From an uncultured Bacillota bacterium (GTDB lineage Bacteria > Bacillota_I > Bacilli_A > RFN20 > CAG-826), in contig CASEPN010000004.1 in assembly GCA_949289845.1 (NCBI GenBank), positions 69 to 64,068 on the forward strand: a stretch of DNA of 64,000 bases. The letters are read 5' to 3'. Numbering within the stretch: position 1 is the first letter of the stretch; the number at the start of each line of letters is the position of its first letter. Position numbers and translations under genes: made by a program. The notes under the pieces were generated by a model. That model ran no database searches, was not told the origin of the DNA, and saw nothing but the letters and a program-made list of their open reading frames with translations. Below are positions 1,053 through 61,232 of this stretch, one piece after another.

Positions 1053-1077
1053 CGTGCCCCGCCCTTATACTCCCCCC

Positions 1078-1482
1078 ATGGCGAAAATGATCGAGCTGCC
1101 CCCGTCGCTCCTCCTTGCGAAGCGGGGGCTAACCCCCGAGGAAGCCTGGGGCGAGGCGGAGGACCGCCTCCACGAGGCGCTTCCTCTCCTGCTCCTTGAT
1201 AAAGACGGGCCGACCTACATCGGCTCTCCTTTCGAGGGTGGCTATCTCGCGGGCTTCCTCATGGACCCTTCTAAGGAAGGGAAGGCCCCCGAGGGCTGGG
1301 AGGAGATCGAGTTCGAGGGATGCTCCGGACTCATGGAGGAGATCCTGGAAGACCGCGAGACCTCCCTCGCCCACCTCATGGAGGAGGCAAGGATGCTATC
1401 TCTCCTCGTCGAGGAGGAGCCTCTCGACCTCGCCCGGGGCGGGATCCCCTATCTCTTCCTTCCCGCCAGGGAGGCTGGCTAG
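1078..1482 (+). CDS. hypothetical protein, possibly degenerate GyrI-like effector-binding fold
   Basis: Coding-like GC3 bias; YLAG...PEGWEEI pattern resembles GyrI-like domains; TATACT 6 nt before ATG. Confidence 0.6.
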   Translation: MAKMIELPPSLLLAKRGLTPEEAWGEAEDRLHEALPLLLLDKDGPTYIGSPFEGGYLAGFLMDPSKEGKAPEGWEEIEFEGCSGLMEEILEDRETSLAHLMEEARMLSLLVEEEPLDLARGGIPYLFLPAREAG

Positions 1483-1538
1483 GCCCGGCTTTCTTCCTCA
1501 GGAAGAAAGTGCGATAATGCCGCCGATTTGGAGATCCT

Positions 1539-1886
1539 ATGGACAAGAAGGACGCTAGGGAACTGGGTCGCGTGACCATCAAGGACGAGGTGATTGCCGA
1601 GGCGGCGAAGGAAGCCGCCCTCCTCTCCTATGGGGTGAAGGCGGTCGTCCCTCCCGGCTCCTCGCTCGGGCTATTTCCCGCCGACGAGAAGAAACCGCCC
1701 GTCCGCGTGCGCAAGAGCGCCCAGGGCTACGAGGTCGACATCTACGTCGTCCTCGCCTACGGGCTCAAGATGACCGAGGTCATCTCGAGCGTCCAGAAGC
1801 AGGTGTCCTTCTCCCTCCGCAGGAAGCTCCCGATCCACCTTTCGAAAGTGAACGTCTTCGTCGAGGACGTCAAGGAAGTCCACTAG
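1539..1886 (+). CDS. Asp23/Gls24 family protein (YloU-like)
   Basis: LGRVTIKDEVIA...YGV...VDIYVVLAYG...KVNVFVEDV; canonical position before DAK2 gene. Confidence 0.9.
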   Translation: MDKKDARELGRVTIKDEVIAEAAKEAALLSYGVKAVVPPGSSLGLFPADEKKPPVRVRKSAQGYEVDIYVVLAYGLKMTEVISSVQKQVSFSLRRKLPIHLSKVNVFVEDVKEVH

Positions 1887-1888
1887 CC

Positions 1889-3574
1889 ATGAAGTCATTG
1901 AACGGGCAGGCCCTTAAGAAGCTTCTTATCTCGGGCGCCAACAACCTATATAACCATTATCCGGAGATCGACCAGCTGAATGTCTTCCCCGTGCCGGACG
2001 GGGACACCGGGATGAACATGAACCTCACCCTCCGAAGCGGGGTGAAGGAGATCGTGAACAAGGGGGACGACTCCGTCGGGACGATCGCCCTCGCCTTCGC
2101 CGACGGCGTCTTCGGGGGCGCCCGCGGGAACTCGGGCTCGATCACGAGCCAGATCTTCCGCGGCTTCGCCGAGTCGCTCCGCGGCAAGAAGGAGGCGAGC
2201 GCCCATGACCTCGACCTCGCCTTCCGGAACGGGAAGGAGGTCGCCTACCGCGTCGTCGACAACCCCGTCGAGGGCACGATCCTCACCGTCATCCGCGAGG
2301 GAAGCGACGTCGCCCACGGGAAGACGAGGAAGGACATCTCGATCGAGGGCTACCTGAAGCTCCTGGTGGAGGCCGCCAGGGTTTCCCTCGAGCACACCCC
2401 GGAGCTTCTTCCCGTCCTCAAGGAGGTCGGGGTCGTCGATAGCGGCGGAGCCGGGCTTCTCGTGATCCTCGAGGGCATGCTTTCCGCGGCGGAAGGCCGC
2501 TTCGTCGAGCGGAACGAGGAGGCGCCGAGGCAAGAGTCCGCCGCCCCCCAGAAAAGCGCCTACGCCGGCGCGATGCTGAGCGAGGAGGAGGAAGGCTACG
2601 GCTACTGCACGCAGTTCATGCTGCGCCTGGGGACCCCGGAAGAGGGGAAGCGCCCCTTCTTCGAGGAGAAGTTCGCCCGCTTCCTCAAGAGCCACGGGAA
2701 GTCGCTCGTCTTCATGAGGAACGGCGACCTCGTGAAGGTCCATGTCCACACCCTCGCCCCGGGCGAGATGCTGAACTACGCCCAGAACTACGGCGAGTTC
2801 GTGACGATCGTCATCGAGAACATGAGCGAGGAGCACCGCAACATCCAGGAAGGGAAGGCCGCGACGGACTTCAGCGCCGCCGAAAGCGAGGTCGGGGAGC
2901 CCGACCATGAGTTCGGCCTCGTCGCCGTCTCCTCCGGGCCTGGCCTCGACAAGATGTTCCATGACTCCGGGGTCGACGTGATCGTCCCCGGGGGCCAGAC
3001 GATGAACCCCGCGACGGAGGACTTCCTCCAGGCGATCAAGCGCACCAGGGCGCGCCAGGTGTTCATCCTTCCGAACAACTCCAACATCGTGATGGCCGCC
3101 TCCCAGGCGTGCGACATGCTCGAGGGCGGGCCCCAGAAGGCCAGGGTCGTCCCGAGCAAGACCATCCTCCAGGGCCTCGTCGCCTGCTCCATGTACCAGA
3201 AGGAGGGGGACGGGGAGGACATCTACGAGAACATGCGGAGCGTCCTCAAGGAGATCCGTTCCGGCTCCGTGACCTTCGCGATCAAGGACGCGGACATCCA
3301 GGGCGTCCACGTGACGAAGGACTACTACCTCGCGATGAAGGACGACAAGACGATCGTGAGCTGCCTCAAGGACAAGGGGGAGGCGCTCCTGGCGCTCGCC
3401 GAGTCCCTGGTCGACGAGGACTCCTGCTCCCTCACCCTCATCTACGGGGAGGACGTGAAGGAGGAGGAGGCGGAAGCCCTTGGGAAGCTCCTCGAGGAAC
3501 GCTTCCCAGACGTCGAGCTGAACGTCCATCCGGGCGGGCAGCCGATCTACAGCTTCCTCATCGGCGTCCAGTAG
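1889..3574 (+). CDS. fakA: DAK2-domain fatty acid kinase subunit A (YloV)
   Basis: LNVFPVPDGDTGMNM, GARGNSG, VVDSGG, GGQTMNP, GGQPIY. Confidence 0.95.
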   Translation: MKSLNGQALKKLLISGANNLYNHYPEIDQLNVFPVPDGDTGMNMNLTLRSGVKEIVNKGDDSVGTIALAFADGVFGGARGNSGSITSQIFRGFAESLRGKKEASAHDLDLAFRNGKEVAYRVVDNPVEGTILTVIREGSDVAHGKTRKDISIEGYLKLLVEAARVSLEHTPELLPVLKEVGVVDSGGAGLLVILEGMLSAAEGRFVERNEEAPRQESAAPQKSAYAGAMLSEEEEGYGYCTQFMLRLGTPEEGKRPFFEEKFARFLKSHGKSLVFMRNGDLVKVHVHTLAPGEMLNYAQNYGEFVTIVIENMSEEHRNIQEGKAATDFSAAESEVGEPDHEFGLVAVSSGPGLDKMFHDSGVDVIVPGGQTMNPATEDFLQAIKRTRARQVFILPNNSNIVMAASQACDMLEGGPQKARVVPSKTILQGLVACSMYQKEGDGEDIYENMRSVLKEIRSGSVTFAIKDADIQGVHVTKDYYLAMKDDKTIVSCLKDKGEALLALAESLVDEDSCSLTLIYGEDVKEEEAEALGKLLEERFPDVELNVHPGGQPIYSFLIGVQ

Positions 3575-3618
3575 GAAGGAGGGGCCTCGGCCTCTCCTTT
3601 TTCTTCTATAGTTTCCCC

Positions 3619-5589
3619 ATGAAGGAGCCATCCCTCAGCGCCTCGCTCCGGAACGCGGGCTTCCGGACCCCTTTGGACGTCCTGGAGCACCTCCCTGTTC
3701 GCTACGAGGACCTGGCCCTCACGAAGGCGCATGAGCCGAAGGACGGGGAGAGGGTGGTCTGCCTCGGGCATGCGATCCCCGGGTCCTTCCGTCTCACGCG
3801 GTTCCTGAGGAGATGCCTCGTGAGCTTCCGCTTCGAGACGAAGGGAGGGAGGACCCTCCTCGTAGAGGCTTGGAACCGCGAGTACTTGATGCGGGACAAG
3901 TCGTTCTCCACGCGGGAGCTCCTCCTCGTGCTGAAGCGCGAGGAACGGAGGAGGAGCTACTCCTTCCTGTCCGCCCACCGTCCGGAGGAAGGAGGGAGGC
4001 TCGTCCCCGTCTACCGCCTTCCGGAAGGGCTCTCCCAGGGCTCGTTCCGGACGCAGCTCCTCCGCCAGGAGGAGAAGCTAAGGGGCAAGGTGGAGGACAT
4101 CGTCCCGGAGCATCTCCGGGCGCGCTACAGGCTGCTCCGGAGGGAGGAGGCGCTCCATAAGGCCCACTTTCCGAGCTCCTACGAGGAGGCGAAGGAAGCG
4201 CTCAGGACATTGAAGTATGAGGAAGCCCTCCTATACGAGCTGAGGAACCTCCTCGCAAGGAAGCGCCACCGGGGCGAGGGGCGGGAGAGCCGCCGCAAGG
4301 TGGATAAAGAGAAGGTCCTTTCGTTCGTCTCCTCCCTTCCCTACCCCCTCCTCGAGGACCAGCGGAAGGCCCTCGAGGAGATCCTTTCCGACATGGACGG
4401 GAAGGGGGCGATGTACCGCCTCCTCCAGGGGGACGTGGGGACGGGGAAGACCCTGGTCGCGGCCCTTGCCGCCTACGCGAACGGCACTAGGGGCGGGCAG
4501 ACCGCCCTCATGGCGCCCACCGAAACCCTGGCAAGGCAGCACTACCTCACCCTCTCAAGGCTCTTCGAGGGCACTTCCTTCCGGGTCGCCCTTTTGACGG
4601 GCGGGACCCCGGGGGAGGAAAGGCCGGCGATCCTCCAGGACCTTCGGGACGGGGACATCGACCTCCTCGTGGGGACGCACGCCCTTTTCGCCAAGAGCGT
4701 GGATTACTTGAACCTCAGCCTCGTCATCATCGACGAGCAGCATAAGTTCGGCGTGGCCCAGAGGACCTCGCTTTTGGGGAAGGGGGAGGGGGCCGACCTC
4801 CTCCTCATGAGCGCGACCCCGATTCCGAGGACCCTCGCCCTCACCCTCTTCGGGGACATGGACGTCAGCACCCTCCGGGAGTTTCCCAAGGGCAGGAGGA
4901 AGGTGGAGACCAAGTGGTGCGCCCCTGACGACCCGGAGGTCCTCCAGGCGGTGCTGGACACCCTCGACGAGGGGAGGGAATGCTTCGTCGTCCTTCCCCA
5001 TATCGAGGGTGAGGACACCCTCAAAAGCGCCCGGAAGGCCTTCGATAGCTTCGCGAGGCTCTTCCCGGGGAAGTGCGTCCTCCTCCACGGGAAGATGGGG
5101 CGGGAGGAGCAGATGGAAAGCGAGCGGCTGTTCCGCGCGAAGGAACGCCCGATCCTCGTGGCGACGAGCATGGTGGAGGTCGGGATCGACGTCCCGGAGG
5201 CCGGGCTTCTCATCCTTTACGAGGCCGGGAGCTTCTCCTTGAGCGCTGCCCACCAGCTCCGGGGAAGGATCGGGCGGGATGGGAGGAAATCCCTCTGCCT
5301 CCTCGTCGACGAGAGGGGCCCCAGGGAAAGCGAGAGGATCAAGACCCTCCTCAATACGGAGGACGGCTTCCTCATCGCCGAGAAGGACCTCGCCCTCCGT
5401 GGTCCCGGGGAAGTCGCCGGCACGAGGCAGAGCGGACTCCCGGACTTCCGCCTCTTGAACGCGGTGGACGACTTCCGCATCTTCGAGTGCGCCCTCCATG
5501 ACGCGGAAGCCCTTCTCGAGGACCCCTCAAGGAAGGGGGAGAGGGCGATCGCCCTCGCCGAGGAAGGGGAGGAAGTGAGCCGGGGCTAA
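3619..5589 (+). CDS. recG: ATP-dependent DNA helicase RecG
   Basis: RLLQGDVGTGKT, IIDEQHKFG, MSATPIPRTL, HQLRGRIGR, DLALRGPGE; true start ATG 3619 rather than ORF-track 3109. Confidence 0.95.
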   Translation: MKEPSLSASLRNAGFRTPLDVLEHLPVRYEDLALTKAHEPKDGERVVCLGHAIPGSFRLTRFLRRCLVSFRFETKGGRTLLVEAWNREYLMRDKSFSTRELLLVLKREERRRSYSFLSAHRPEEGGRLVPVYRLPEGLSQGSFRTQLLRQEEKLRGKVEDIVPEHLRARYRLLRREEALHKAHFPSSYEEAKEALRTLKYEEALLYELRNLLARKRHRGEGRESRRKVDKEKVLSFVSSLPYPLLEDQRKALEEILSDMDGKGAMYRLLQGDVGTGKTLVAALAAYANGTRGGQTALMAPTETLARQHYLTLSRLFEGTSFRVALLTGGTPGEERPAILQDLRDGDIDLLVGTHALFAKSVDYLNLSLVIIDEQHKFGVAQRTSLLGKGEGADLLLMSATPIPRTLALTLFGDMDVSTLREFPKGRRKVETKWCAPDDPEVLQAVLDTLDEGRECFVVLPHIEGEDTLKSARKAFDSFARLFPGKCVLLHGKMGREEQMESERLFRAKERPILVATSMVEVGIDVPEAGLLILYEAGSFSLSAAHQLRGRIGRDGRKSLCLLVDERGPRESERIKTLLNTEDGFLIAEKDLALRGPGEVAGTRQSGLPDFRLLNAVDDFRIFECALHDAEALLEDPSRKGERAIALAEEGEEVSRG

Positions 5590-5632
5590 GGCGCCCAGGA
5601 AAGGAAGGGGGAAACCCGCTATAATCCGGGCT

Positions 5633-6619
5633 ATGGAAAAACTAGCGATCGCCGTGGACATGATGGGCTCCGACAAGGGCCCCGGGATGGCCCTTGAGGC
5701 CGTCCGTTCCTTTCATGAGAAGAATCCTGGAGTCCTCCTTTATCTCGTAGGAAGGAAGGAGGAGCTCGGGGACGTCTCCTCGCTCGGGGAGCTCGTGGAA
5801 GCGCCCGACGTCCTTCCGATGACCGCGGGGGCGCTCGACGTCATCCGCGCGAAAGGAAGCTCGATCTACAAGGCCTCCTCCCTCGTGAGGGAGGGGAAGT
5901 GCTCGGCGGTCGTCTCCGCGGGCGGGACCGGGGCCTTCCTCTCGAGCGCCGCCCTCATCCTCGGGAAGGCGGAAGGCGTGCTCCGGCCCGCGCTGGCCGC
6001 CTCGCTCCCGAACTTCCGGACCGGGGGGCATACGATCCTCCTCGACTGCGGCGCAAGCAACGAGAACTCCGGGGAGGAGCTCATGCAGTTCGCCCTCATG
6101 GGCGCCCTCTACCAAAGGATCGTCTACGGGGTCGATAAGCCCAAGGTGGCGCTCCTTTCCAACGGTGCGGAGGAAGGGAAGGGCTCGCCCGAAGGGAAGG
6201 AAGCCTATCGCCTCCTGAAGGAAAATCCGAAGGAAGAGTACGAGTTCATCGGGAATGTCGAGGGCAAGGACGTCCTCGAGGGCCCGATGGAGGTGCTCGT
6301 GACCGACGGATATAGCGGGAACGTCCTCATGAAGGGCGTCGAAGGGGCCGCGAAGGCGATGGGCCACCTCCTAAAGAAGGCCTTCATGACGAATATCTCC
6401 ACGAAACTTGGATATCTTTTGGCAAAAAAGGGAATGGCCGGCCTCAAGGAAAGCCTCGACCCCTCCTCGATCGGCGGGGCGATGCTCCTGGGCGTAAAGG
6501 GCGTGGCGGTGAAGGCCCACGGGGCGAGCGACCCCAAGGGCTTCCTGAGCGCGCTTTCCCTGGCTTCCCGTATGGCGAAGGGGGATATGGCCGCGGAGCT
6601 CGCGCGCCTTCTTTCGTGA
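5633..6619 (+). CDS. plsX: phosphate acyltransferase PlsX
   Basis: IAVDMMGSD, RPALA, LDCGA, GNVEG, VTDGYSGN, VKAHG. Confidence 0.95.
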   Translation: MEKLAIAVDMMGSDKGPGMALEAVRSFHEKNPGVLLYLVGRKEELGDVSSLGELVEAPDVLPMTAGALDVIRAKGSSIYKASSLVREGKCSAVVSAGGTGAFLSSAALILGKAEGVLRPALAASLPNFRTGGHTILLDCGASNENSGEELMQFALMGALYQRIVYGVDKPKVALLSNGAEEGKGSPEGKEAYRLLKENPKEEYEFIGNVEGKDVLEGPMEVLVTDGYSGNVLMKGVEGAAKAMGHLLKKAFMTNISTKLGYLLAKKGMAGLKESLDPSSIGGAMLLGVKGVAVKAHGASDPKGFLSALSLASRMAKGDMAAELARLLS

Positions 6620-7332
6620 GGATGGGCAGGGAAAGGATCCTGGAGCGCCTCCAGGCCCTCGGGGTTTACCCCCGCGAGGAGAACGTCCCACTCTACGAGC
6701 TCGCCTTCACCCATAGCTCGGTGAACGGGAACGCGGGGACTCGCCACAAGGACTACGAGCGACTCGAGTTCCTCGGGGACGCCCTGATGGGTTTCCTCGT
6801 CGGGGAGCTTTGCTACGAGCTCCACCCGGAGCTCCAGCAGGGAGGGCTGACCGCCCTCCGCGCGCATTTCATCCGGACGGAAGGGGAGGCTTCCCTTGCA
6901 AGGAAGCTTGGCTTCGGCCCCCTCGTCCTCGTCGGGAGCAGCTTCCAGGGGGACCCTGAAAAGAACGATTCCCTCATGGAAGACGTCCTCGAGAGCTTCC
7001 TCGGCGCGCTTCTTTTGGACCAGGGTCTCCCCTTCGCCCGCTCCTTCGTACGGAACATCCTCGAGGAGGAGGTGACCTCCACCGTCCTACCCTCTACGGA
7101 GAACCCCAAGAGCGAGCTCCAGGAGGTCATCCAGGCCGACCATAGGGAGTCGGTGACCTACCGCCTCATCTCGGAGAAGGGGCCCGCCCACGAGAAGACC
7201 TTCGTCGTCGGGGTCTACTTCGAGGACCAGGAGCTGGCCCGCGGGACGGGAAGAAGCAAGAAAGAGGCCGAGACCATGGCGGCCCGTCTCGCCCTCGAGA
7301 AGCTCGCCGACCGCGAGGAGGAGGGCGCCTGA
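6616..7332 (+). CDS. rnc: ribonuclease III
   Basis: AFTHSS, ERLEFLGDA, dsRBD NPKSELQE...GRSKKEAE; start may be ATG 6622. Confidence 0.95.
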   Translation: MRMGRERILERLQALGVYPREENVPLYELAFTHSSVNGNAGTRHKDYERLEFLGDALMGFLVGELCYELHPELQQGGLTALRAHFIRTEGEASLARKLGFGPLVLVGSSFQGDPEKNDSLMEDVLESFLGALLLDQGLPFARSFVRNILEEEVTSTVLPSTENPKSELQEVIQADHRESVTYRLISEKGPAHEKTFVVGVYFEDQELARGTGRSKKEAETMAARLALEKLADREEEGA

Positions 7333-8309
7333 TGGGCCTTTTCTCCTTCCTCCGCGAGAAGTTCTCGAAGAAGCCCCGGGACGAGCGGCAGGATAGCTAC
7401 GAGAAGGGACTCAGGAAAAGCAGGGCCGCCTTCGCCGACCGGCTGAAGGAGCTTTCGAAGCGCTACGGGAAGGCCAGCGGGGCCTATTTCGAAGAGCTGG
7501 AGGAGATCCTCATCGAGGCCGACGTCGGGGTTTCGCTCACCCTCCGCCTCGTCCAAGGCCTCATGGAGAAGGCCAGGAAGGAAGGGATCGAGGACACGAC
7601 AAGGCTCAACGAGGAGCTCGTCGACCTCATGTTCCTTGGCTACGTGGGCGAGGGGAAGATCGAGAACGAGATCCATTTCGCCCCCGAGGGACCGACCGTC
7701 CTCCTCATGACCGGGGTGAACGGGGTGGGCAAGACCACGACGATCGCCAAGCTCGCGCTCCGCTACCAAGGGATGGGAAAGAAGGTGATGCTCGTCGCCG
7801 GGGACACCTTCCGCGCCGGGGCGAGGGAGCAGCTTTCCATCTGGGCCGAGCGTCTTTCCTGCCCGATCGTCCTCGGAAAGGAAGGGGCCGACCCCGCCTC
7901 GCTTTGCTACGAAGGGGCGGAACGGGCCCTGAAGGAGGGGATCGACCTTCTCATCGTCGACACCGCCGGACGCCTCCAGACGAAGCAGAACCTCATGGCG
8001 GAGCTTTCGAAGATGCGGAAGGTGCTCGGGAAGATCATCCCGGGCGCGCCCCACGAGACTTTCCTCGTGATCGACGCGACGACAGGGCAGAACGGGGTCA
8101 GCCAGGCGAAAGCCTTCGAGGAGGCGACCCCGCTGACTGGAATCGTGATAACCAAGATGGACGGGACGAGCAAGGGCGGGATCATCCTCTCGATCCGTGA
8201 CGAAATCGGCGTGCCCGTCCGCTTCATCGGCCTTGGGGAAAGGATGGAGGACCTCCGGGAGTTCGACCTCGAGGAGTATCTGCATGCGCTCCTCCTTGCC
8301 CATGAGTGA
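7332..8309 (+). CDS. ftsY: SRP receptor FtsY
   Basis: GVNGVGKTTT, DTFRAGA, DTAGR, TKMDGTSKGG. Confidence 0.96.
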   Translation: MGLFSFLREKFSKKPRDERQDSYEKGLRKSRAAFADRLKELSKRYGKASGAYFEELEEILIEADVGVSLTLRLVQGLMEKARKEGIEDTTRLNEELVDLMFLGYVGEGKIENEIHFAPEGPTVLLMTGVNGVGKTTTIAKLALRYQGMGKKVMLVAGDTFRAGAREQLSIWAERLSCPIVLGKEGADPASLCYEGAERALKEGIDLLIVDTAGRLQTKQNLMAELSKMRKVLGKIIPGAPHETFLVIDATTGQNGVSQAKAFEEATPLTGIVITKMDGTSKGGIILSIRDEIGVPVRFIGLGERMEDLREFDLEEYLHALLLAHE

Positions 8310-8604
8310 GCTTGAGCGGAGGGTCCGTTTGGTCCGTCTTTACGACCTATACGGGCCTCTTCTCTCCCCGGCGCAGAGGAAGGCCTTCGAGAGCCGCTAC
8401 CTGGAGGACCTATCCCTTGGGGAGATGGCAGAAGAGGAAGGCGTCTCGCGCGCAGGTATCCAGGACGCGGTGAAAAAAGCCGAAAGAAAACTTGAGGAAT
8501 GCGAGGATAAGCTCGGATTCCTCGGACGGGTGGAGAAAGTCCTCGGGCTTCTCGAGGAAGGCAAGGAAGAGGAAGCGAAGGAGGTGCTTAGGGATGGCAT
8601 TTGA
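8302..8604 (+). CDS. ylxM: YlxM family (SRP-associated) protein
   Basis: LYDLYGPLL...YLEDLSLGEMAEEEGVSR; between ftsY and ffh. Confidence 0.88.
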   Translation: MSELERRVRLVRLYDLYGPLLSPAQRKAFESRYLEDLSLGEMAEEEGVSRAGIQDAVKKAERKLEECEDKLGFLGRVEKVLGLLEEGKEEEAKEVLRDGI

Positions 8605-9928
8605 GTCTTTGACGGAAAAGTTCCAGCGGGTCTTCAAGAAGATGCGGGGGGAGAGCACCCTCAGCGAGAAGAACATCGAAGGGGCGCTGGGGGAGATCCG
8701 GGTCGCCCTCCTGGAAAGCGACGTCAACTACAAGGTCGTGAAGGAGTTCCTCCAGCATGTGCGCGAGAAAGCGCTCGGGCAGGAGGTCCTCCTTAAGGTC
8801 AATCCGAGCGAGATGCTCGTCAAGATATGCCACGACGAGCTCCTCGCGCTCCTTGGCTCCGGGGAGACCGCCCTGAAGCGCGGGAAGCCCCTCACGACCA
8901 TCCTTCTCGTCGGCCTCCAGGGCTCGGGCAAGACCACCACCGCGGGTAAGCTAGCCCTCCGCCTGAAGGAGAAGGAAGGGAGGAAGCCTCTCCTCGCCGG
9001 GCTTGACGTCTATCGCCCCGCGGCCATCGACCAGCTTCGGGAAATCGCTTCGAAGATCGACGTCCCCTTCTTCAGCCTCGGGACGAAGGCGGATCCCGTG
9101 GACATCGCCCTCAAGGCGCGGGAGGAGGCGCTAAGCCTGGGCAGGGACACTCTCATCCTCGACACCGCGGGACGGCTTCAGATTGACGAGCCCTTGATGG
9201 AGGAGCTCCGGAACATCATCCAGAAGGTCCATCCGGAGGAGTCCCTCCTCCTCGTGGACGCGATGGCGGGCCAGGACGCGGTGAACGTCGCCAAGGCCTT
9301 CCATGAGTCCGTTCCTCTCACGGGCATCGTGATGAGCAAGCTGGACGGCGATGCGAAGGGAGGCGCGGCCCTTTCGATCAAGCACATGTCCGGCCTTCCC
9401 ATCAAGTTCGCCGGCGTGGGCGAGAAGCTCGAGGACCTCGAGGAGTTCCATCCCGACCGCATGGCCGACCGCATCCTCGGGATGGGGGACGTCGTGAGCC
9501 TCGTGGAGAAGGCCCAGGAGGTCATTTCCGAGAAGGAGGCCGCCCGCGCGGGGAGGAAGATGCTCGAGGGGGAGTTCACTCTCGAGGACATGATCGACCA
9601 GATGAAGATGGTCCGCCGGATCGGCTCCCTAGGGGCGATCGCGAAGATGATCCCGGGCATGCCTTCCCTCACGGACGAGCAGAAGGAGAGGGCTGAGCGC
9701 GAGATGAAGATCTTCGAGGTCGTCGTCTCCTCGATGACTCCTTATGAGAGAAGGCATCCGGAATGCCTCAAGAACTCCAGGAAGCAGCGCATCGCCCGCG
9801 GGTCCGGCACCACGCAGGCGGACGTGAACCGCGTGCTCCGCAAGTACGAGCAGAGCCGTGATATGATGAAGAAAATGAAGGGTCTCAAGGGCGGGCGCGG
9901 CCTTCCCCCGGGATTCCGCGGTTTCTAG
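8594..9928 (+). CDS. ffh: signal recognition particle protein Ffh
   Basis: MAFESL, GLQGSGKTT, DTAGR, RILGMGD, RIARGSG; SD GGAGGT before ATG 8594. Confidence 0.97.
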   Translation: MAFESLTEKFQRVFKKMRGESTLSEKNIEGALGEIRVALLESDVNYKVVKEFLQHVREKALGQEVLLKVNPSEMLVKICHDELLALLGSGETALKRGKPLTTILLVGLQGSGKTTTAGKLALRLKEKEGRKPLLAGLDVYRPAAIDQLREIASKIDVPFFSLGTKADPVDIALKAREEALSLGRDTLILDTAGRLQIDEPLMEELRNIIQKVHPEESLLLVDAMAGQDAVNVAKAFHESVPLTGIVMSKLDGDAKGGAALSIKHMSGLPIKFAGVGEKLEDLEEFHPDRMADRILGMGDVVSLVEKAQEVISEKEAARAGRKMLEGEFTLEDMIDQMKMVRRIGSLGAIAKMIPGMPSLTDEQKERAEREMKIFEVVVSSMTPYERRHPECLKNSRKQRIARGSGTTQADVNRVLRKYEQSRDMMKKMKGLKGGRGLPPGFRGF

Positions 9929-9937
9929 GAGGTAGGA

Positions 9938-10822
9938 ATGGCATCCATCAAGGACAGGCTCGTCGCCTGGCATAGGCGGCGGGGCACGAAGAAGGTCGAC
10001 GACGCGCGCGATCGGAACATCAAGGACGTTGACGGGGTCGAGAGCCTCGAGTTCCCTTATGGCCCCGGAAAAGGGAAGTACTGGCGGCTGGACGTCCATC
10101 GCCCGGCGGAAAGGAAGGATCCTCTTCCCGCGATCCTGGTTGTCCACGGGGGAGGCTTCTCCTATGGGACCAAGGAGACGTACCGCCTATACGGCCGCTA
10201 CCTCGCCAAGCAAGGCTTCGGGGTCGTCGTCTTCAGCTACCCCCTGGCGCCGGAAGCGCGCTTCCCGACCCAGCTCCTGGCGGTGGACAAGGCGATGGAA
10301 TGGCTCAAGAACAATGGGGAGCGACTTGGAATATCCTTGGAAAAGCCCCTTCTTTTTGGGGATTCCGCGGGGGGACACCTAGCGTTCCACTATGCCGAGA
10401 TCTGCGGGAGGGCCGATCTGAGGACCCTCTTCCACCAGCACTGGGGCACGAACTTCAAGTGCCCTCTTGCGATCGGAGGCCTCGGGCTCAACTGCGCGAC
10501 CTTCCGGAACCTTTCCGATCCCGAAGACTCCCTGAACCATTGGCTCGGGACCGCGGGGCGCCTTGGAAAGGAGCTCGATCCCCTCGCCTTCGTCGGGGAC
10601 TATCTCCCGCCCATGTACCTTCTGACGGGGGACGGGGACTTCCTCCTCGGGGAAAACCAGGCGATGCACCGGCTCCTCGACGAGGCGGGCATCCCGCACG
10701 GGTATAAGGAATACGTTGGGAAGAACGCCCCTCTTTCCCATGTGTTCCACTGCAACTTGGCCCTTGAGGAAGCCCTTGAGGCGAACCAGGACGAGATCCA
10801 GTATTTGATGAAGAGGCGCTAG
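9938..10822 (+). CDS. alpha/beta hydrolase (HSL-like esterase/lipase)
   Basis: HGGGF oxyanion motif, GDSAGG nucleophile elbow, C-terminal H. Confidence 0.88.
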   Translation: MASIKDRLVAWHRRRGTKKVDDARDRNIKDVDGVESLEFPYGPGKGKYWRLDVHRPAERKDPLPAILVVHGGGFSYGTKETYRLYGRYLAKQGFGVVVFSYPLAPEARFPTQLLAVDKAMEWLKNNGERLGISLEKPLLFGDSAGGHLAFHYAEICGRADLRTLFHQHWGTNFKCPLAIGGLGLNCATFRNLSDPEDSLNHWLGTAGRLGKELDPLAFVGDYLPPMYLLTGDGDFLLGENQAMHRLLDEAGIPHGYKEYVGKNAPLSHVFHCNLALEEALEANQDEIQYLMKRR

Positions 10823-11607
10823 TCCTCTTCCTTATGAAGGAAGCGCCGCCCTTTCTCGAGGGCGGCTTTTTCCCATTTTGCCTCCCGGAGGCCGTCGAGC
10901 TCCTCGAGGAGCTTCCGGTCTTCCTTCGTGAGGGGGAGCCGCTCGAAGAGATCCGGCCTCCTTTCCCTCGTGATGCGGAGCTGCTCCCTCCTCCTCCAGA
11001 GGCGGATCGCCTCGTGGTTCCCGGAATAGAGGATGTCGGGGACCTTCATCCCGCGGTACTCGTAGGGCTCGGTCCACTGGGGATATTCGAGGAGGGGCTC
11101 GTTGAAGCTTTCTTCCCCAAGGGACTCGTTCGCGATCGCCCCGTCGAGGAGGCGGATGACGGAATCGGCGATCGCCATCGAGGGGATCTCGCCTCCCGTG
11201 AGGACGAAGTCGCCCATGGAGACTTCCTCGTCGACGAAGGAGGACACCCTCTCGTCGACTCCCTCGTAGTGGCCGCAGACAAGGATCGCTCCCGCTTCCT
11301 TCGATAGCCTCACGGCGTCCTCTTGCGCGAACCTTTTGCCCCTCGGGGACATGAGAAGGACGCGGCTTCCCGGGGCCCTCCTCTTCGCCTCCTCTATCGC
11401 ATCGACGATCGGCTGCGCTTTCTGGATGAGCCCCGCCCCTCCTCCGATGGAGGGGGTGTCGGTCCTGCCGTAGCGGTCCTTGGTGAAGTCGCGGATCTGG
11501 ATCGCTTCGAAAGAGGCGACGCCCTTGGCAAGGGCGCGCTTGATGATGCTCTGGCTCTCGAAGCCCTCGAACATCTCGGGGAACAGGGTGAGGACCTGGA
11601 TCTTCAT
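10819..11607 (-). CDS. trmD: tRNA (guanine-N1)-methyltransferase TrmD
   Basis: LTLFPEMF, CGHYEGVDER, SMGDFVLTGGE, LLEYPQ. Confidence 0.97.
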   Translation of the reverse strand: MKIQVLTLFPEMFEGFESQSIIKRALAKGVASFEAIQIRDFTKDRYGRTDTPSIGGGAGLIQKAQPIVDAIEEAKRRAPGSRVLLMSPRGKRFAQEDAVRLSKEAGAILVCGHYEGVDERVSSFVDEEVSMGDFVLTGGEIPSMAIADSVIRLLDGAIANESLGEESFNEPLLEYPQWTEPYEYRGMKVPDILYSGNHEAIRLWRRREQLRITRERRPDLFERLPLTKEDRKLLEELDGLREAKWEKAALEKGRRFLHKEED

Positions 11608-12122
11608 AAAAGCCCCGGGATGACCTGGATGACGATCTTCTTGCTCTCGAGATCAAGGTCGAGGACGAACTTCTTGTCGAGGAAAGGGACGGTGAAGCGC
11701 CCGCCTTCCTTCTTCTCGACGACGAGGTTGAGGACGGGGGCGTTCTGCATGGTGTCGACGACCGTCCCGAGGAGATTCCCGTCCTGGTCGAAGCAGGAGA
11801 GTCCCTTGAGGTCCTCCAGCCGGTAGTATCCCTCCGGGACGGGCGCCTCTTCCTTCCGGATGTAGAGAGAAAGCCCGCGGAGAGACTCCGCTTCCTCAGG
11901 GGTGCCGATTTCCTCGAAAAGGAAGGTGAGGGAGTTTCCCGAGGCACGGCAGGAGCGAAGCGTCAGCTCCCTTCCTCCTTCCTTTTCGTCCTCTCTTCTT
12001 GCAAGAAGCTTCCTCCCCTTGGTGAAGCGAAGCTCCGGGAAGCTCGTCAGGGAGCGGGCCTTGACCTCGCCCTTGAGGGCGAAGGGCTTACCGAGCTCGG
12101 CGACCTTGATCCACTCGTCCAT
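11604..12122 (-). CDS. rimM: ribosome maturation factor RimM
   Basis: KPFALKGEVK...YYRLEDLKG...IPGLL; synteny. Confidence 0.92.
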   Translation of the reverse strand: MDEWIKVAELGKPFALKGEVKARSLTSFPELRFTKGRKLLARREDEKEGGRELTLRSCRASGNSLTFLFEEIGTPEEAESLRGLSLYIRKEEAPVPEGYYRLEDLKGLSCFDQDGNLLGTVVDTMQNAPVLNLVVEKKEGGRFTVPFLDKKFVLDLDLESKKIVIQVIPGLL

Positions 12123-12141
12123 GGAGAAAAAGAACGCCTTC

Positions 12142-12420
12142 CTAGGCGTTCTCCCCCTCGGCCTCGGAGAAGCTTTCGAACTTCAGGTGGACCCTGGTGT
12201 TCGTGTCCTCGGCCTTGGCGGCGATGCGGATGACCTCGCGGAGGGCGTTGGCAACGACCCCGCGCTTCCCGATGAGGCGCTTGGTGTCCTCCTCGTCGGC
12301 GCAGATGAGGATCGTGAGGTCGCGGTCCGACCCGGAGGGAATCTCGCGGATGATGATGTCGTCGGGATGCTCGACCATCGGGTCGATCAGGCCGTGGATG
12401 GCCTTGACGTAGTCGGCCAT
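12142..12420 (-). CDS. khpA: KH-domain RNA-binding protein (KhpA/YlqC)
   Basis: LIGKRG GxxG loop; position after rpsP; start MADYVK at 12420. Confidence 0.88.
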   Translation of the reverse strand: MADYVKAIHGLIDPMVEHPDDIIIREIPSGSDRDLTILICADEEDTKRLIGKRGVVANALREVIRIAAKAEDTNTRVHLKFESFSEAEGENA

Positions 12421-12422
12421 CC

Positions 12423-12695
12423 TTAGTTCTTCTTGGCCTTCGCGGCGTTGAACTTGGCGATGATGCCCTTGGCGGTCAGCATCGCGCGGACGGAGTCGCT
12501 GGGGATGGCCCCGTTCTGGAGCCACTTGAGCGCCTTCTCCTCGTCGATCACGGCCTCCTTGGCGCCCTTGGCGGGGTCGTAGATCCCGATCTGCTCGATG
12601 ATGCGGCCGTCCCTGGCGGAGCGGCTGTCGCTGGCGACGATGCGGAAGAAGGGATCCTTGTGGCGTCCGATGCGGGTGAGTCTGAGCTTGACCAT
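12423..12695 (-). CDS. rpsP: 30S ribosomal protein S16
   Basis: MVKLRLTRIG...PFFRIV..DSR..RDG..IE.IG.YDP. Confidence 0.98.
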   Translation of the reverse strand: MVKLRLTRIGRHKDPFFRIVASDSRSARDGRIIEQIGIYDPAKGAKEAVIDEEKALKWLQNGAIPSDSVRAMLTAKGIIAKFNAAKAKKN

Positions 12696-12730
12696 GTTGA
12701 GTTATCTCCTATGTGCTTTCTACGGAGCGG

Positions 12731-12775
12731 AATATCCCCTTCATGAAATGGTTTGTCAAGTTGATTTGCTTGACA
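12731..12775 (-). promoter_or_regulatory. rpsP promoter with TGTCAAG-N8-CTTGACA inverted repeat
   Basis: Minus strand TTGACA-17 bp-GATATT; inverted repeat 12754-12775. Confidence 0.6.
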
Positions 12776-12980
12776 TCGTTAATGTGAATTGGCCTTTGCC
12801 AAAGGAAAGGGGTGGTATATTTCCGGCTAATCTAACGTCGCATGTTAACTTAGCCGGAAAGTTAGGTCTCAGGTTACTGCGGAGTATTTCGAAGACTTAG
12901 CCAGGCACTGGAGTTTTTGGCCCATTTGCGTTTGCTACCGTCGGCTTCGCTATCTGGCCTAAGGGCGTCCATGTTCGCCC

Positions 12981-13009: not shown

Positions 13010-13032
13010 CCACGAGCACGCGAAAGCGCGCC

Positions 13033-22625: not shown

Positions 22626-22637
22626 AAGGAGGTCTCC

Positions 22638-49816: not shown

Positions 49817-49987
49817 GCCTGATTCTGACCCCAATGGGCGAAGGATGCCAGCGGAAGCTTGATCAAGCGAGCGCTTTCCTTCCGTTATTCAAATTTCTTT
49901 CCTAGGAAAGAGGACTTTTGCAAGGTTATCGGAATAGCAAGGAAAACCGCTCTACACTCCTTTGTTTTGCCGGGATAAAGTTTGAGC

Positions 49988-50488
49988 ATGGAAAGGGATG
50001 AAAAGGACTATCTCGAGCATTGCCTTGCTCTCCTGAAGGAACGTGGCGTGACCGTGGAGGACATCGCCGACTGCGCCCGCTACCTCCAGAGCGGCTACCA
50101 CCATTCCCTGAAGACAGAGGAGCTTTGCCTGAGCGTCCTCAAGGTCCTGGAGAAAAGGGAGGTGCAGTTCGCCGTCATGACGGGCATCGCCCTGGATAAG
50201 GCCGCCGAGCAGGGCCTTCTCCCCGACAAGGAGCTGGAAGGGCTCCTCATGGAGGATGCGCCCCTCTACGGGGTGGACGAGGTGCTCGCCTACGGGATCT
50301 GCAACACGTACGGCTCGATCGCCCTTACCAACTTCGGTTTCATCGACAAGGACAAATACGGGATCATCCGGAAGCTGAACGAGGCCGGGAAGGGGACCGG
50401 TCGCTGCAACACCTTCCTGGACGACCTCGTCGGAGCGATTGCCGCTTCCGCGGCCTCGCGCTTCGCCCATAACGTGGAGGAGGAATAG
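49988..50488 (+). CDS. phosphatidylglycerophosphatase A family protein (YutG-like)
   Basis: KREVQ, YGVDE, YGSIA.TNFG..DK.K.GII, TFLDD. Confidence 0.87.
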   Translation: MERDEKDYLEHCLALLKERGVTVEDIADCARYLQSGYHHSLKTEELCLSVLKVLEKREVQFAVMTGIALDKAAEQGLLPDKELEGLLMEDAPLYGVDEVLAYGICNTYGSIALTNFGFIDKDKYGIIRKLNEAGKGTGRCNTFLDDLVGAIAASAASRFAHNVEEE

Positions 50489-51304: not shown

Positions 51305-51336
51305 GAAAGAAAGCCTTCTTACTTATAATTTCCAAG

Positions 51337-52662
51337 ATGAAGCATCTTTTTGGGACGGACGGGATCCGCGGGGTAGCGAACGCGGACCTCACCTTGGACG
51401 TGGCCGCGCGCCTTGCCCGGGCGCTCGCCCTGACCCACAGGCAGATATACCTTGGGATGGACACCCGCGAGTCCTCGCCCATGTTCGCGGGGCAGATCAT
51501 CGCCTCCGCGCTTTCCGCGGGCGCCGATGTCTACGACATGGGCGTGGTGGGGACGCCTGGCGTGGCCTATACCCTCGCCTCCCTTAGGAGCCCCCATCCG
51601 ATCGGCATCGTCGTCACCGCCTCCCATAACCCCTACCAGGATAACGGCCTCAAGGTGATTGCCTCCGGAGGAGGGAAGCTTCCCGTGGAGGAGGAGAGGA
51701 GACTCGAAGGGGCGATGGCCTATTCCGGCCTCGAGCAGGTTAAGAACCCGGGTGTGGGCCAGTATGTCTCCGGGAAAAGCCTTCGGACCGACTACATCGA
51801 TCACCTCAAGACCATCTGCCCTCGCGCTTCCTATGAGGGGACGCTCATACTGGACTGCGCCAATGGCGCCCTGAGCGCCTACGCCTCCTCGGTCTTCCAC
51901 GCCCATGGGATCAAGACGAGCATCACCGCGAATCGTCCCGATGGGCGGAACATCAACGCCGGCGTGGGAGCGACCTCCATCGACCAGACGAGAAGGAAGG
52001 TGTTTCGGGACGAGGCGAGGCAGAAGGACCTCCTCATCGCCTTCGACGGCGATGGGGACCGCCTCATGATGGCCCTTCCGAGCGGGACGGTCATCGACGG
52101 GGACGCCCTTTCCTACCTCGTGCTCAAGGCGGAGCTCGAGCAGGGAAGGCAAGGGGACTTCGGGATCGCCCTGACGAAGATGTCCACCCTCGGCACCATC
52201 CGTTCCATCCGGGCCCTGGGCGTTGAGCCGGTGATCACCGACGTGGGTGACCGCGCCCTTGCCGAGGCGCTTCGAGACGGTGGCTTCCTCCTAGGGGCGG
52301 AGCAATCCGGGCACGTCATCTTCCCAGAGGAGATGCCCACAGGGGACGGCATCCTCACCGCCCTCCGCTTCCTGAGCCTCTACCATAGCGAGCGCGAGAT
52401 CCGCTGGGCGCTGAAGACCTACCACCCCAGCTACCAGGAGCTGATGAACTTCTCGTTCCGCTCCCGCGAGGACCTCGGTAATTTCGTCGAGAGCACTGCC
52501 TACCGGAAGTTCGTCGCCCTGTTCGGGAAGGAAGGGGACTCCCGGGTGTTCATCCGCCCGAGCGGCACGGAGCCTGTCCTCCGCGTCCTCCTCGATTTCC
52601 CGAGCAAGCTCGAGGCAGCCGAGGCTAGGGCGAGGATCATGGACTTCATGGAGGCTCGCTAG
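51337..52662 (+). CDS. glmM: phosphoglucosamine mutase
   Basis: FGTDGIRG, TASHNP, FDGDGDR, GAEQSGH, RPSGTEP. Confidence 0.92.
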   Translation: MKHLFGTDGIRGVANADLTLDVAARLARALALTHRQIYLGMDTRESSPMFAGQIIASALSAGADVYDMGVVGTPGVAYTLASLRSPHPIGIVVTASHNPYQDNGLKVIASGGGKLPVEEERRLEGAMAYSGLEQVKNPGVGQYVSGKSLRTDYIDHLKTICPRASYEGTLILDCANGALSAYASSVFHAHGIKTSITANRPDGRNINAGVGATSIDQTRRKVFRDEARQKDLLIAFDGDGDRLMMALPSGTVIDGDALSYLVLKAELEQGRQGDFGIALTKMSTLGTIRSIRALGVEPVITDVGDRALAEALRDGGFLLGAEQSGHVIFPEEMPTGDGILTALRFLSLYHSEREIRWALKTYHPSYQELMNFSFRSREDLGNFVESTAYRKFVALFGKEGDSRVFIRPSGTEPVLRVLLDFPSKLEAAEARARIMDFMEAR

Positions 52663-56901: not shown

Positions 56902-57509
56902 CCCTTCCGGAAGATGAGCCCGAGCACCATCGGGATCGTCCTGAAGAAGATCACGAAATCCTGCCTGAAGGAGAAATTCCGTACATATTCCCCATCGTTT
57001 TTCGCTTTTTCAAGAATGTCGTGCCGGCATTCCATCCGGAGCTGGGCGAGGCCGGTGAGCCCGGGGCGCACTAGGAAGGGATCGTTCTCCTGGGCTTTCC
57101 TTGCCTCGTACAGGGGGACTTGGTACTTCGCTTCCATCATCGGACGCGGACCGATGAGGGACATGTCGCCTCGGAAGATGTTCCAAAGCTGGGGAAGCTC
57201 GTCCATCCGGCTCACGCGTAGGAAGCACGCGAACTTCGGAAGGACTTTTTTTGTTTCCTTCAGGTCTTCCGCTCCGACATGGGAGGGTGCATCCACCCTC
57301 ATCGTCCTGAATTTGTAGATGATGAAGGGCCTTTCGTCTCTCCCGAGCCTTACCTGTTTGAAAAGGATAGGACCAGGGGAGCCGGCTTTGACGAGGATCG
57401 CCCCAATCAGGAGGAAAGGGGAGGCGACAATTAGGCCAAGCCCGGAGACCAGGATGTCCATCGCTCGCTTGAAGAAGCGGAATCCGAGCGTGCCGGGCCT
57501 TCGTTTCAT
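56898..57509 (-). CDS. bacterial sugar transferase (priming phosphoglycosyltransferase, small PglC/WcaJ-type)
   Basis: KRAMDI, F.Q.R.G, KFRTM, DELPQL.N...GDMSLIGPRP, PGLTGLAQ. Confidence 0.92.
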   Translation of the reverse strand: MKRRPGTLGFRFFKRAMDILVSGLGLIVASPFLLIGAILVKAGSPGPILFKQVRLGRDERPFIIYKFRTMRVDAPSHVGAEDLKETKKVLPKFACFLRVSRMDELPQLWNIFRGDMSLIGPRPMMEAKYQVPLYEARKAQENDPFLVRPGLTGLAQLRMECRHDILEKAKNDGEYVRNFSFRQDFVIFFRTIPMVLGLIFRKG

Positions 57510-57577
57510 TCGCCGGGCAAATATACCGCGCGGGCAAGGGAAGAAAAAGCCCGGCGTCATCGCCGGGCGTCTTCTCC

Positions 57578-59429: not shown

Positions 59430-59471
59430 AAAGTTGCATCCTCCTTGAGGGCGTGCTATAAAACGCTCCGC

Positions 59472-59546
59472 GGCCCTGTGGTCAAGCGGCTAAGACGCAA
59501 CCCTCTCAAGGTTGAATCCCGGGTTCGATTCCCGGCTGGGTCACCA
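59472..59546 (+). tRNA. tRNA-Glu(CTC)
   Basis: CAACC-CT CTC AA-GGTTG; CCA; U6:U67 mismatch in acceptor stem. Confidence 0.93.
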
Positions 59547-59627
59547 ACGAAGCGCGAGGCCCCGGAACTTCCGGGGCCTTTTGCTTGCCTTCCCGCCCAA
59601 GGGGAATGAGGGTATCCTTCCTTAGTC

Positions 59628-61232
59628 ATGGCAACCAAGTACGTGTTCGTAACGGGAGGCGTGGTCTCCTCCCTTGGGAAGGGCATCTTCGCCTCTTCCC
59701 TCGGCCTTCTCCTGAAGTCGGGCGGGCTCCGGATATCGATGATGAAGCTCGACCCCTACCTGAACATCGACCCCGGGACAATGTCTCCTTACCAGCATGG
59801 GGAGGTCTACGTGACGGAGGACGGGGCCGAGACGGACCTCGACCTTGGCCACTACGAGAGGTGGATCGACGAGAACCTCACCAAGGAAAGCTCCCTTACC
59901 TCGGGGAAGGTGTACATGTCCGTCATGGACAAGGAGAGGCGCGGGGACTACCTCGGGGCCTGCATCCAGGTCATCCCGCACGTGACCGACGAGATTAAGA
60001 TGAGGATCCGCGAGGCGGCGAGGGTCCAGAAGGCGGACGTCATCATCTGCGAGATCGGTGGGACGGTGGGGGACATCGAGTCCCTTCCCTTCCTCGAGGC
60101 GATCCGCGAGATGAGACTCGAGGAAGGCTTCGGCTCCACCCTCTTCGTCCATAACACCCTCGTCCCGTATCTTCGCTCAGCGGAGGAGACGAAGACGAAG
60201 CCGACCCAGCACTCGGTGAAGGAACTCCTGTCGCTTGGCATCCAGCCCGACGCGATCGTCCTTAGGACCGAGGTGCCTCTCACGGATTCCCAGCTGAAGA
60301 AGATTTCCCTCTTCTGCAACGTTCCTCCCGAGGGGGTGTTCACCGCGCTCGACGAGAAGGTCGTCTACGACCTCCCTGTCCACCTCCATGAGCAAGGGCT
60401 CGAGTCCTATGTCCTTAGGAGGCTTGGCCTCGAGGAGAGGGAGAGCGACCTCTCCTCCTGGAAGAAGTGGGTCGACTCCTTCAAGGAGAGGAAGGGCAAG
60501 GTGAGGATTGCCCTCGTCGGGAAGTACGTCGAATTGAAGGACGCCTATCTTTCGGTGAAGAGCGCCCTCGTCCACGCCGGGACGAGGCTTGGCCGGAATA
60601 TTGAGATCGACTGGATCAAATCCTCCTCCCTGACCGAGGAGAACTGCGCTTCCCTTCTTGGAGAGGCCGACGGGATCCTCGTCCCCGGAGGCTTCGGGGA
60701 GCGGGGGAGCGAGGGGAAGAAGCTCGCGATCCGCTATGCCCGGGAAAACGGGGTCCCCTTCCTTGGGATCTGCTTCGGGATGCAGCTCGCCATCATCGAG
60801 TTCGCCCAGCATGTCCTCGGATGGGAGGATGCCGACTCCGCGGAGTTCGATCCCCACTGCGCCCGCCCTGTCATTGACCTTCTCCGCGGGCAATACGACG
60901 GCATCGAGCTCGGGGGCACGATGCGCCTTGGGAACTATCCCTGCCTTACGAAGGAAGGGTCCCTCGCCCGGAAGCTATACGGGCAGGAAAGGATCGAGGA
61001 GCGGCACCGCCACCGCTACGAGTTCAACTCCCGCTACAGGGAGGACTTCGAGAGGGCCGGGCTTTCCTTCTCCGGGATCAATCCGGACTCCGGCCTCGTC
61101 GAGATCATCGAGCTTCCCGGCCATCCCTATTTCGTCGCCTCGCAGTTCCATCCCGAGTTCACCTCGCGCCCCCTCCGCCCCAACCCCCTCTTCCTGGGCT
61201 TCGTCGAGGCGGCGATGAAGAGAAGTGAATGA
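59628..61232 (+). CDS. pyrG: CTP synthase
   Basis: GGVVSSLGKG, KTKPTQHS, GICFGMQ, RHRHRYE, FHPE. Confidence 0.98.
   Translation: MATKYVFVTGGVVSSLGKGIFASSLGLLLKSGGLRISMMKLDPYLNIDPGTMSPYQHGEVYVTEDGAETDLDLGHYERWIDENLTKESSLTSGKVYMSVMDKERRGDYLGACIQVIPHVTDEIKMRIREAARVQKADVIICEIGGTVGDIESLPFLEAIREMRLEEGFGSTLFVHNTLVPYLRSAEETKTKPTQHSVKELLSLGIQPDAIVLRTEVPLTDSQLKKISLFCNVPPEGVFTALDEKVVYDLPVHLHEQGLESYVLRRLGLEERESDLSSWKKWVDSFKERKGKVRIALVGKYVELKDAYLSVKSALVHAGTRLGRNIEIDWIKSSSLTEENCASLLGEADGILVPGGFGERGSEGKKLAIRYARENGVPFLGICFGMQLAIIEFAQHVLGWEDADSAEFDPHCARPVIDLLRGQYDGIELGGTMRLGNYPCLTKEGSLARKLYGQERIEERHRHRYEFNSRYREDFERAGLSFSGINPDSGLVEIIELPGHPYFVASQFHPEFTSRPLRPNPLFLGFVEAAMKRSE

Follow-up and report, generated by a model that had tools for sequence, protein, structure and literature searches.

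A −10-like hexamer directly before the start codon marks candidate leaderless genes in a small, GC-rich genome of the Bacilli

The sequence signature of bacterial genes read from leaderless messenger RNAs (mRNAs) is already published, including its occurrence in a minority of Firmicutes and in mycoplasmas (PMC3160421, PMC6028130). Zheng et al. (2011; PMC3160421) describe TANNNT hexamers whose first T lies about 12 bp before the start codon, name the genes that carry them TA-led, and give figures of 56 out of 209 Firmicutes genomes with a TA-like signal, carried by 4.2% of the genes on average and by 16.6% at most, Lactococcus lactis being the example in the legend to their Fig. 1D. In the classification of Lomsadze et al. 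(2018; PMC6028130), group C comprises genomes whose first-in-operon genes have a Pribnow box about 10 nt ahead of their starts; 36 of 1064 Firmicutes are assigned to it, 25–50% of transcripts or operons are given as leaderless in group C bacteria, and the leaderless genes of Mycobacterium tuberculosis have a box-to-start distance of 6–8 nt. According to the GeneMark-HM paper (PMC8153819), 717 of 4930 human-microbiome species models belong to group C, and the gap in start error is largest for these genomes. Among the Mollicutes, Mycoplasma pneumoniae is reported to have 16% leaderless-like transcripts (5′ untranslated region, UTR, of at most 8 nt), to be without ribosomal protein S1 and to have a Shine-Dalgarno (SD) sequence in 8.1% of its genes (PMC10568206), some mycoplasmas reach about 18% leaderless-like transcripts, and in Mesoplasma florum transcription start sites (TSSs) are placed 6–7 nt past the −10 box, some of them on start codons (PMC7745072). 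Here we analyze a 64,000-nucleotide stretch of an uncultured Bacillota bacterium of the lineage CAG-826 (assembly GCA_949289845.1, contig CASEPN010000004.1, our C4, positions 69–64068; hereafter the window), in which −10-like hexamers stand 6–10 nt before the start codons of sixteen genes devoid of an SD sequence, together with the whole assembly and its relatives.

The genome (G000 in the comparisons below) comprises 1,298,076 bp in 4 contigs, with 61% GC, and is rated 98% complete; it belongs to an order of small genomes (0.9–2.0 Mb), and beyond relatives with 96–97% identity the next named matches to its PyrG, at 57–60% identity, are from Oscillospiraceae, Bacillus and Lentibacillus. Start codons were called by a purpose-written, self-training dicodon gene finder blind to upstream motifs, which under table 11 gave 1126 genes at a coding density of 91.7%. 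Offsets are counted from the first T of the hexamer, −12 corresponding to a spacer of 6 nt to the start codon. Counted in this way over 1124 genes, the occurrences of TANNNT number 81 at −12, 37 at −13 and 19 at −14, while the offsets from −60 to −40 have about 3–12 each, and the peak persists (76 at −12) when the first start codon of each open reading frame (ORF) is used instead. At −12/−13 the motif is found in 118 of 1122 genes for a background of 19.9 (Poisson p ~1e-50), and at −12 to −15 in 149 of 1122 against 41.4 ± 6.2, maximum 58, when the upstream 50 nt are shuffled; on the contig of the window, 10 of 55 genes carry it at the latter offsets, against 1.9 ± 1.4 in 500 shuffles, the highest of which reached 8. 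When the start is free to be any candidate close to the onset of coding, 218 genes show the arrangement, with spacers of 6 (110 genes), 7 (59), 8 (29) and 9 nt (20), against 62–108 at six shifted control offset sets, from which the real cases are estimated at about 120–150 genes, some 10–13% of the total. An unbiased count of hexamers at −12/−13 returns two classes only, SD words and −10-box words; the top non-SD word is TATAAT (29 occurrences for 0.12 expected), accompanied by TAGAAT (15 for 0.06), TATACT, TAAAAT and TATCAT. The original prediction, made from the letters of the window, had supposed that such AT-rich hexamers are rare in this GC-rich DNA, and they are: TANNNT has a density of 0.0026 per position, and TATAAT is present 134 times on both strands of the genome, 48 of them 6–9 nt before a candidate start.

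The directly observed positional signal is specific for a class of genes. Motif carriers amount to 139 of the 611 genes that are unit-first, that is, the first of an operon or transcription unit, and to 20 of the 513 operon-internal genes. Genes with a divergent upstream neighbour must be unit-first, and among 266 of them the motif precedes 78 when strict starts are used (9–20 at seven control offset sets) and 109 when any candidate start is allowed (21–41 at the controls), which in raw counts makes about 29–41% of the unambiguous unit-first genes. The architecture had been called pervasive; the share is substantial, and it is not a majority. The genome-wide motif analysis suggested with the original prediction returned a sharp peak at spacers of 6–7 nt that belongs to unit-first genes only. 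Most of the remaining genes lean on the SD sequence: GGAGG peaks at −12 (68), 52% of the genes have an SD core, 350+2 of the 513 operon-internal genes use it, and the 16S 3′ end, which also had been proposed for inspection, contains CCTCC, so that the anti-SD is intact.

Several features tell what kind of signal the hexamer would be. Its consensus is TATAAT with T1, A2 and T6 fixed, followed by a C-rich spacer; 61% of the candidates have C as the last base of this spacer, and ATG is the start in 197 of the 218, as against 917 of 1126 genes overall. With a spacer of 6 nt the A of the ATG lies seven nt past the hexamer, the usual distance of a TSS. Spacer, preceding C and preference for ATG are as would be expected if the A of the ATG were the transcription start. 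A strict hairpin with T-run, taken as a terminator, is located within 80 nt upstream in 26 of 77 co-directional candidates (gap below 100 nt) and in 30 of 589 other genes; with a terminator just upstream, the hexamer is therefore the sole promoter-like element before the ATG.

We propose that the hexamers are σA −10 elements, mostly −10-only and occasionally TG-extended, located 6–7 nt and less often 8–10 nt before the start codon. A −10 box this near to the start codon would make RNA polymerase start at the A of the AUG or 1–3 nt upstream, giving an mRNA without room for an SD sequence, on which the ribosome would have to bind a 5′-terminal AUG, the leaderless mode of translation. This would be a genome-wide habit of about a third of the unit-first genes, while operon-internal, ribosomal-protein and the remaining unit-first genes would keep SD-led initiation. 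We consider it probable that the hexamers are −10-only promoters with transcription from the AUG or at most 3 nt before it and that leaderless mRNAs result; the firing of the promoters, the position of the TSS and the translation of the mRNAs are here inferred from sequence. Every computational test agrees with the original prediction, in which these genes would be transcribed from the start codon or a position next to it, a habit of the lineage existing alongside SD-led genes.

Compared with the described systems, the genome has all the sequence-level features by which the leaderless-rich, TA-led or group C, class is defined. As in M. tuberculosis, Streptomyces coelicolor and D. deserti, TANNNT lies about 12 nt before the start with a spacer of 6–8 nt, it is confined to operon-first genes, and the SD of the other genes stands at the same distance; the 29–41% of divergent-first genes falls within the range of 25–50% of operons given for group C. 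The −35 element is poorly conserved in mycobacteria, a further likeness. Unlike the group C Actinobacteria and Deinococcus-Thermus, the present genome is tiny (1.3 Mb) and belongs to another phylum, to the Bacilli within the Firmicutes, and whereas the motif of high-GC Actinobacteria is described as TAnnnT, here the middle of the hexamer is informative, with TATAAT dominant. The Mollicutes, like the present organism, are genome-reduced Bacilli in a broad sense; S1 was not found here and is stated to be absent from M. pneumoniae, leaderless and leadered genes coexist, and the TSS lies 6–7 nt past the −10 box in M. florum. The Mollicutes differ in their use of the SD sequence, present in 8.1% of M. 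pneumoniae genes and in about half of the genes here, with an intact anti-SD, and in that their leaderless transcripts come from mapped TSSs, those here being predicted from sequence. With the Firmicutes that carry a TA signal the genome shares the signal itself, and its estimated share of genes lies within the published range, near the top, in an uncultured lineage of small genomes.

To follow the signal across relatives, the same gene finder was run on 100–400 kb pieces of nine further genomes, giving a sample of four genomes in the genus, the one under study included, and six outside. The occurrence of TANNNT at −12/−13 was expressed as a ratio over background offsets, a conservative measure because these offsets hold real promoters of leadered genes. 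Within the genus the ratio is 5.9x in G000 (61% GC), 5.8x in G009 (55%), 2.9x in G016 (43%) and 1.8x in G021 (37%; p 9e-4). In other genera of the family it is 1.7x in G064 (49% GC; p 0.05), 1.0x in G053 and 0.8x in G074, and in other families 1.2x in G030 (85 genes only) and 0.35x in both G028 and G038. Hence the peak is present in all four sampled genomes of the genus, from 37 to 61% GC, and is absent or borderline in the six sampled outside it.

The arrangement is also kept gene by gene. Among reciprocal best orthologues, those of G000 candidates are themselves candidates in 37 of 48 cases in G021 (39 of 238 for other genes), in 29 of 52 in G009 (25 of 169) and in 6 of 10 in G016 (7 of 71); no such difference is seen at control offsets, and outside the genus it is small or absent, e.g., 6 of 27 against 16 of 99 in G028. 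When both orthologues are candidates, their start codons share the residue register in 28 of 37 (G021), 17 of 29 (G009) and 4 of 6 pairs (G016). In the window, the arrangement is kept in G021 at the 49988 gene, ORF44626, the amrA-like gene and the sugar transferase gene, described below. This conservation is statistical and not universal: deoD, for instance, is leaderless-type in G021 and has a short SD leader in G000. The comparison with low-GC relatives that had been suggested is favourable in that the peak extends down to 37% GC and orthologues keep the arrangement, and it fails for pyrG, as detailed below. The swing in GC within a single genus is itself wide, 61% in G000 and 37% in G021, for PyrG proteins 82–83% identical and a median orthologue identity of 63%.

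The sixteen sites of the window, on the plus strand unless stated, are found with hexamers, start codons and spacers as predicted, the spacers being of 6 nt in six, 7 nt in five, 8 nt in two, 9 nt in two and 10 nt in one, and none of the sixteen has GGAG, GAGG or AGGA at −18 to −4. Six start with a spacer of 6 nt. ORF1078 (134 aa, no family; 1066–1080) has TATACT and ATG, and follows a 5S rRNA gene and a terminator-like hairpin with T-run; recG (3607–3621) has TATAGT and ATG, with a terminator-like hairpin with T-run at 3578–3595 directly upstream; the putative lipoprotein gene, whose product would carry a signal peptide with Cys (13537–13551), has TG-n-TAGAAT and GTG, with a terminator upstream at 13471–13496; a 260-aa ORF without NCBIfam match, taken previously for an SGNH gene (24543–24557), has TAAAAT and ATG; the CPA2-family antiporter gene (37300–37314) has TATAGT and ATG; and the PgpA/CobZ-like phosphatase gene, the 49988 gene (49976–49990), has TAAAGT and ATG, with TAAAAT, 6 nt, ATG in G021. 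The spacer is 7 nt, before ATG, in plsX (TATAAT, 5620–5635), uppS (TATAAT, 27680–27695), the amrA-like gene coding for an AMMECR1/Memo-like fusion (TATAAA, 43210–43225), ORF44626 (TG-n-TAAAGT, 44613–44628; TAAAAT, 6 nt, ATG in G021) and glmM (TATAAT, 51324–51339). It is 8 nt before the ATG of the signal peptidase I gene lepB (TATAAT, 14930–14946) and of a 291-aa ORF on the minus strand, the LRR gene of the original prediction (TATCAT, 27615–27631), divergent from uppS; 9 nt before that of pyrH (TATAAT, 25379–25396; a second ATG 9 nt downstream is possible) and pyrG (TATCCT, 59613–59630), the latter downstream of a tRNA gene (59472–59543) and a terminator hairpin; and 10 nt before that of the sugar phosphotransferase gene on the minus strand (TATATT, 57507–57525), downstream of a tRNA gene and its terminator, where G021 has TAAAAT, 8 nt, ATG. 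Terminator, −10 box and ATG are tightly packed, in about 45–70 nt, at recG, pyrG, the sugar transferase gene and the lipoprotein gene.

The 75-nt divergent spacer 27618–27692 holds two back-to-back leaderless-type promoters, TATCAT for the minus-strand ORF and TATAAT for uppS. The putative lipoprotein gene (13549–14891, plus strand) looks frame-shifted: it is covered by two overlapping ORFs, 13549–14307 and 13908–14891, with coding potential in frame 0 as far as about 14000 and then, between about 14150 and 14750, in frame 2. The gene could be broken, the assembly could be in error, or two genes could be present.

The four contrast genes keep strong SD sequences, as had been noted: AGGAGG at rpsB (22615–22640, ATG 22638), AAGGAGG at rplS (13072–13095, the true ATG, 13093, being set by the L19 profile), TAGGAG upstream of the start of rpsP (12695, minus strand) and TAGGAGG at frr (26105–26126), 10 nt downstream of pyrH. 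Both of the divergently oriented genes rpsP and rplS are served by two-hexamer promoters of the classical kind, TTGACA-17-GATATT (12731–12759, minus strand) and TTGCCC-17-TATATT (12981–13009, plus strand), respectively, and both have true leaders, that of rplS being about 75 nt long. The rpsB frame (22638–23639) extends some 26 residues ahead of the S2 profile and some 80 beyond its end, and has a sub-threshold match to a "sunset domain" S2 variant (221 bits, cut-off 710). In other SD-led unit-first genes a −10-like hexamer is often found about 28–43 nt before the start, in the window at 17268, 18173, 36868 (minus strand), 54454 and 57753, and likewise genome-wide. For short-leader SD genes such as dprA, topA, deoD and gltX this implies predicted 5′ UTRs of about 15–30 nt, just the size to hold an SD sequence.

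The first alternative accepts the promoters and questions the start codons: translation would begin not at the adjacent ATG but further downstream, at a codon preceded by an internal SD, so that the mRNAs would be leadered and the pattern one of start mis-calls. Indeed, the coding-potential rule chose downstream starts in the SGNH gene, pyrH, the antiporter gene and the amrA-like gene, and several listed genes have no anchor, N-terminal support from NCBIfam profiles being absent for lepB, the antiporter, the lipoprotein, ORF1078, the SGNH gene and the LRR gene. Conversely, the profiles fit the proposed N-termini in five genes, in four of which the profile sets in only a few residues away from the proposed Met: residue 2 of PyrG aligns to profile position 2, residue 5 of GlmM to position 1, residue 6 of PlsX to position 3 and residues 8–10 of UppS to position 1; in the fifth, PyrH, residue 5 aligns to position 1. 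ATG 57509 is taken as the reasonable start of the sugar transferase gene, the ATG of the longer ORF, 57560, falling within the hairpin that terminates the preceding tRNA gene. The upstream start of the amrA-like gene is matched in G021 within two codons of the equivalent residue by an ATG with TAGAAT at 6 nt. Wrong starts would not be expected to yield a peak that, counted from the start codon, is only 1–2 nt wide, nor the residue register shared by orthologous candidate starts in G021 and G009. Start mis-calling is therefore an unlikely origin of the pattern.

According to a second alternative, even less probable, the AT-rich hexamer would act in translation, as a non-SD ribosome-binding site or A/U-rich enhancer on a leadered mRNA, as in the GeneMarkS-2 group B. 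Its distance from the start equals that of the SD sequence, and it has no evident −35 partner, both of which would suit such a role. A translation signal should, however, precede operon-internal genes as well, and only the 20 of 513 mentioned above carry the motif; in Bacteroidetes-like group B genomes the motif precedes first and internal genes alike, and the comparison of first with internal genes is what separates group B from group C in the scheme of PMC6028130. The TATAAT consensus with its fixed positions, the C-rich spacer and the terminators directly upstream of many sites also speak for promoters. Moreover, multi-domain ribosomal protein S1 (TIGR00717), the usual reader of A/U-rich leaders, was not found in the genome or in 40 relatives, nor did any match exceed the cut-off, which taken alone is a poor test since no more than 2 of 14 control genomes reach it; the S1-domain matches in all 41 genomes are single domains within frames of about 720–750 or 120–140 aa. 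Loss of S1 was considered as the cause of the difference between lineages and discarded, S1 having gone undetected alike in leaderless-rich and other genomes. Finally, an origin in composition or chance, through AT-richer intergenic DNA (1936 TANNNT in 114,393 intergenic bases on both strands, about three times the genome average) or the TAA and TAG stops of upstream genes, is extremely improbable, given that the shuffles remain far below the observed 149, that neighbouring offsets, serving as internal controls, stay low, that genes without a co-directional upstream neighbour, and so without a stop codon that could create it, show the strongest signal, and that AT-rich relatives (26–29% GC) are depleted at −12/−13 (0.35x) rather than enriched.

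Leaderless transcription from −10-only promoters remains the preferred explanation, and a number of observations, besides the downstream starts already mentioned, weigh against it. The starts are predictions of a purpose-written gene finder not calibrated on mapped starts, and the related genomes are kin, not independent, with 100–400 kb of each sampled. Fifteen of the sixteen hexamers of the window fit TANNNT, the exception being the TATAAA of the amrA-like gene at 43210, without the final T. Five sites, pyrH, pyrG and the sugar transferase gene included, have spacers of 8–10 nt, which imply leaders of 1–3 nt or weaker sites and not strictly leaderless mRNAs. A scan for two-hexamer promoters in window positions 1–20000 gave 3 sites against 1.9 in shuffles, none of them at a listed gene; because of this lack of enrichment, the listed sites are not classical −35/−10 promoters. 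When the candidates are aligned, a faint TTG appears at −23 to −21 from the hexamer (T 33%, T 28%, G 35%) and the canonical −35 is absent. The glmM arrangement is found in 0 of 16 genus orthologues, and in two low-GC relatives with 82–83% PyrG identity pyrG has an SD sequence instead.

GlmM (51337–52662) is unusually divergent, 48% identical to its closest genus match, in G021, 34–38% to other genus members and 31–38% to other genera of the family, unlike PyrG, 83% identical in G021; the glmM locus of most other genera of the family has 27–50% GC. The weak TATCCT of pyrG, with its spacer of 9, is kept in the 96–97% identical relatives; its arrangement was considered as ancestral and this was dropped in view of the two SD-led relatives. 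The sole hairpin with T-run upstream of pyrG directly follows the tRNA gene, ahead of TATCCT, leaving about 45 nt to the ATG, and the Rfam scan of the window returned rRNA and tRNAs only, with no cis-regulatory leader. It had been argued that no room is left for a leader such as the pyrG attenuator: with 45 nt from terminator to ATG this is plausible, while the weakness of the hexamer and a possible transcription of pyrG by read-through from the upstream tRNA gene leave the argument incomplete.

It had also been proposed that the lineage split ancestral operons into short units. Outside the genus, 18 conserved co-directional pairs have as downstream gene the orthologue of a G000 candidate; their median gap is 20 nt there and 43 in G000, and nine of the 18, pooled over related genomes, are at most 20 nt apart in the outgroup and have a wider gap with a leaderless-type promoter in G000. 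This would be suggestive of ancestral operons split into shorter units, on thin support.

The most interesting residue of the analysis is evolutionary, namely a signal strong in one genus at 37–61% GC and weak or undetected in the sampled sister lineages, with genes switching state. Tentatively, and with doubts that slightly outweigh our confidence, we suggest that the genus acquired leaderless initiation, or greatly expanded it, at its base, in an otherwise SD-dependent order of Bacilli with reduced genomes and no S1 found, and then kept it gene by gene across about 37–61% GC; pyrG and glmM would have become leaderless only in the high-GC branch, and would be among the genes seen switching state, as would deoD.

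The known mechanism of leaderless initiation is unchanged by these findings, which bear instead on how this lineage is read and compared. Gene callers that expect an SD sequence will misplace starts in it, and even without a culture the sequence allows promoters to be read off directly, leading to a first operon map. The genus offers a contrast of leaderless-rich genomes with SD-only sister lineages across a very large shift in GC, and the contrast within the lineage could inform the turnover of translation-initiation modes. If the gain at the base of the genus is true, the lineage would provide a natural series for the moves of genes between SD-led and leaderless expression, as well as a test of genome compaction, with terminator, −10 box and ATG in about 45 nt, as their driver.

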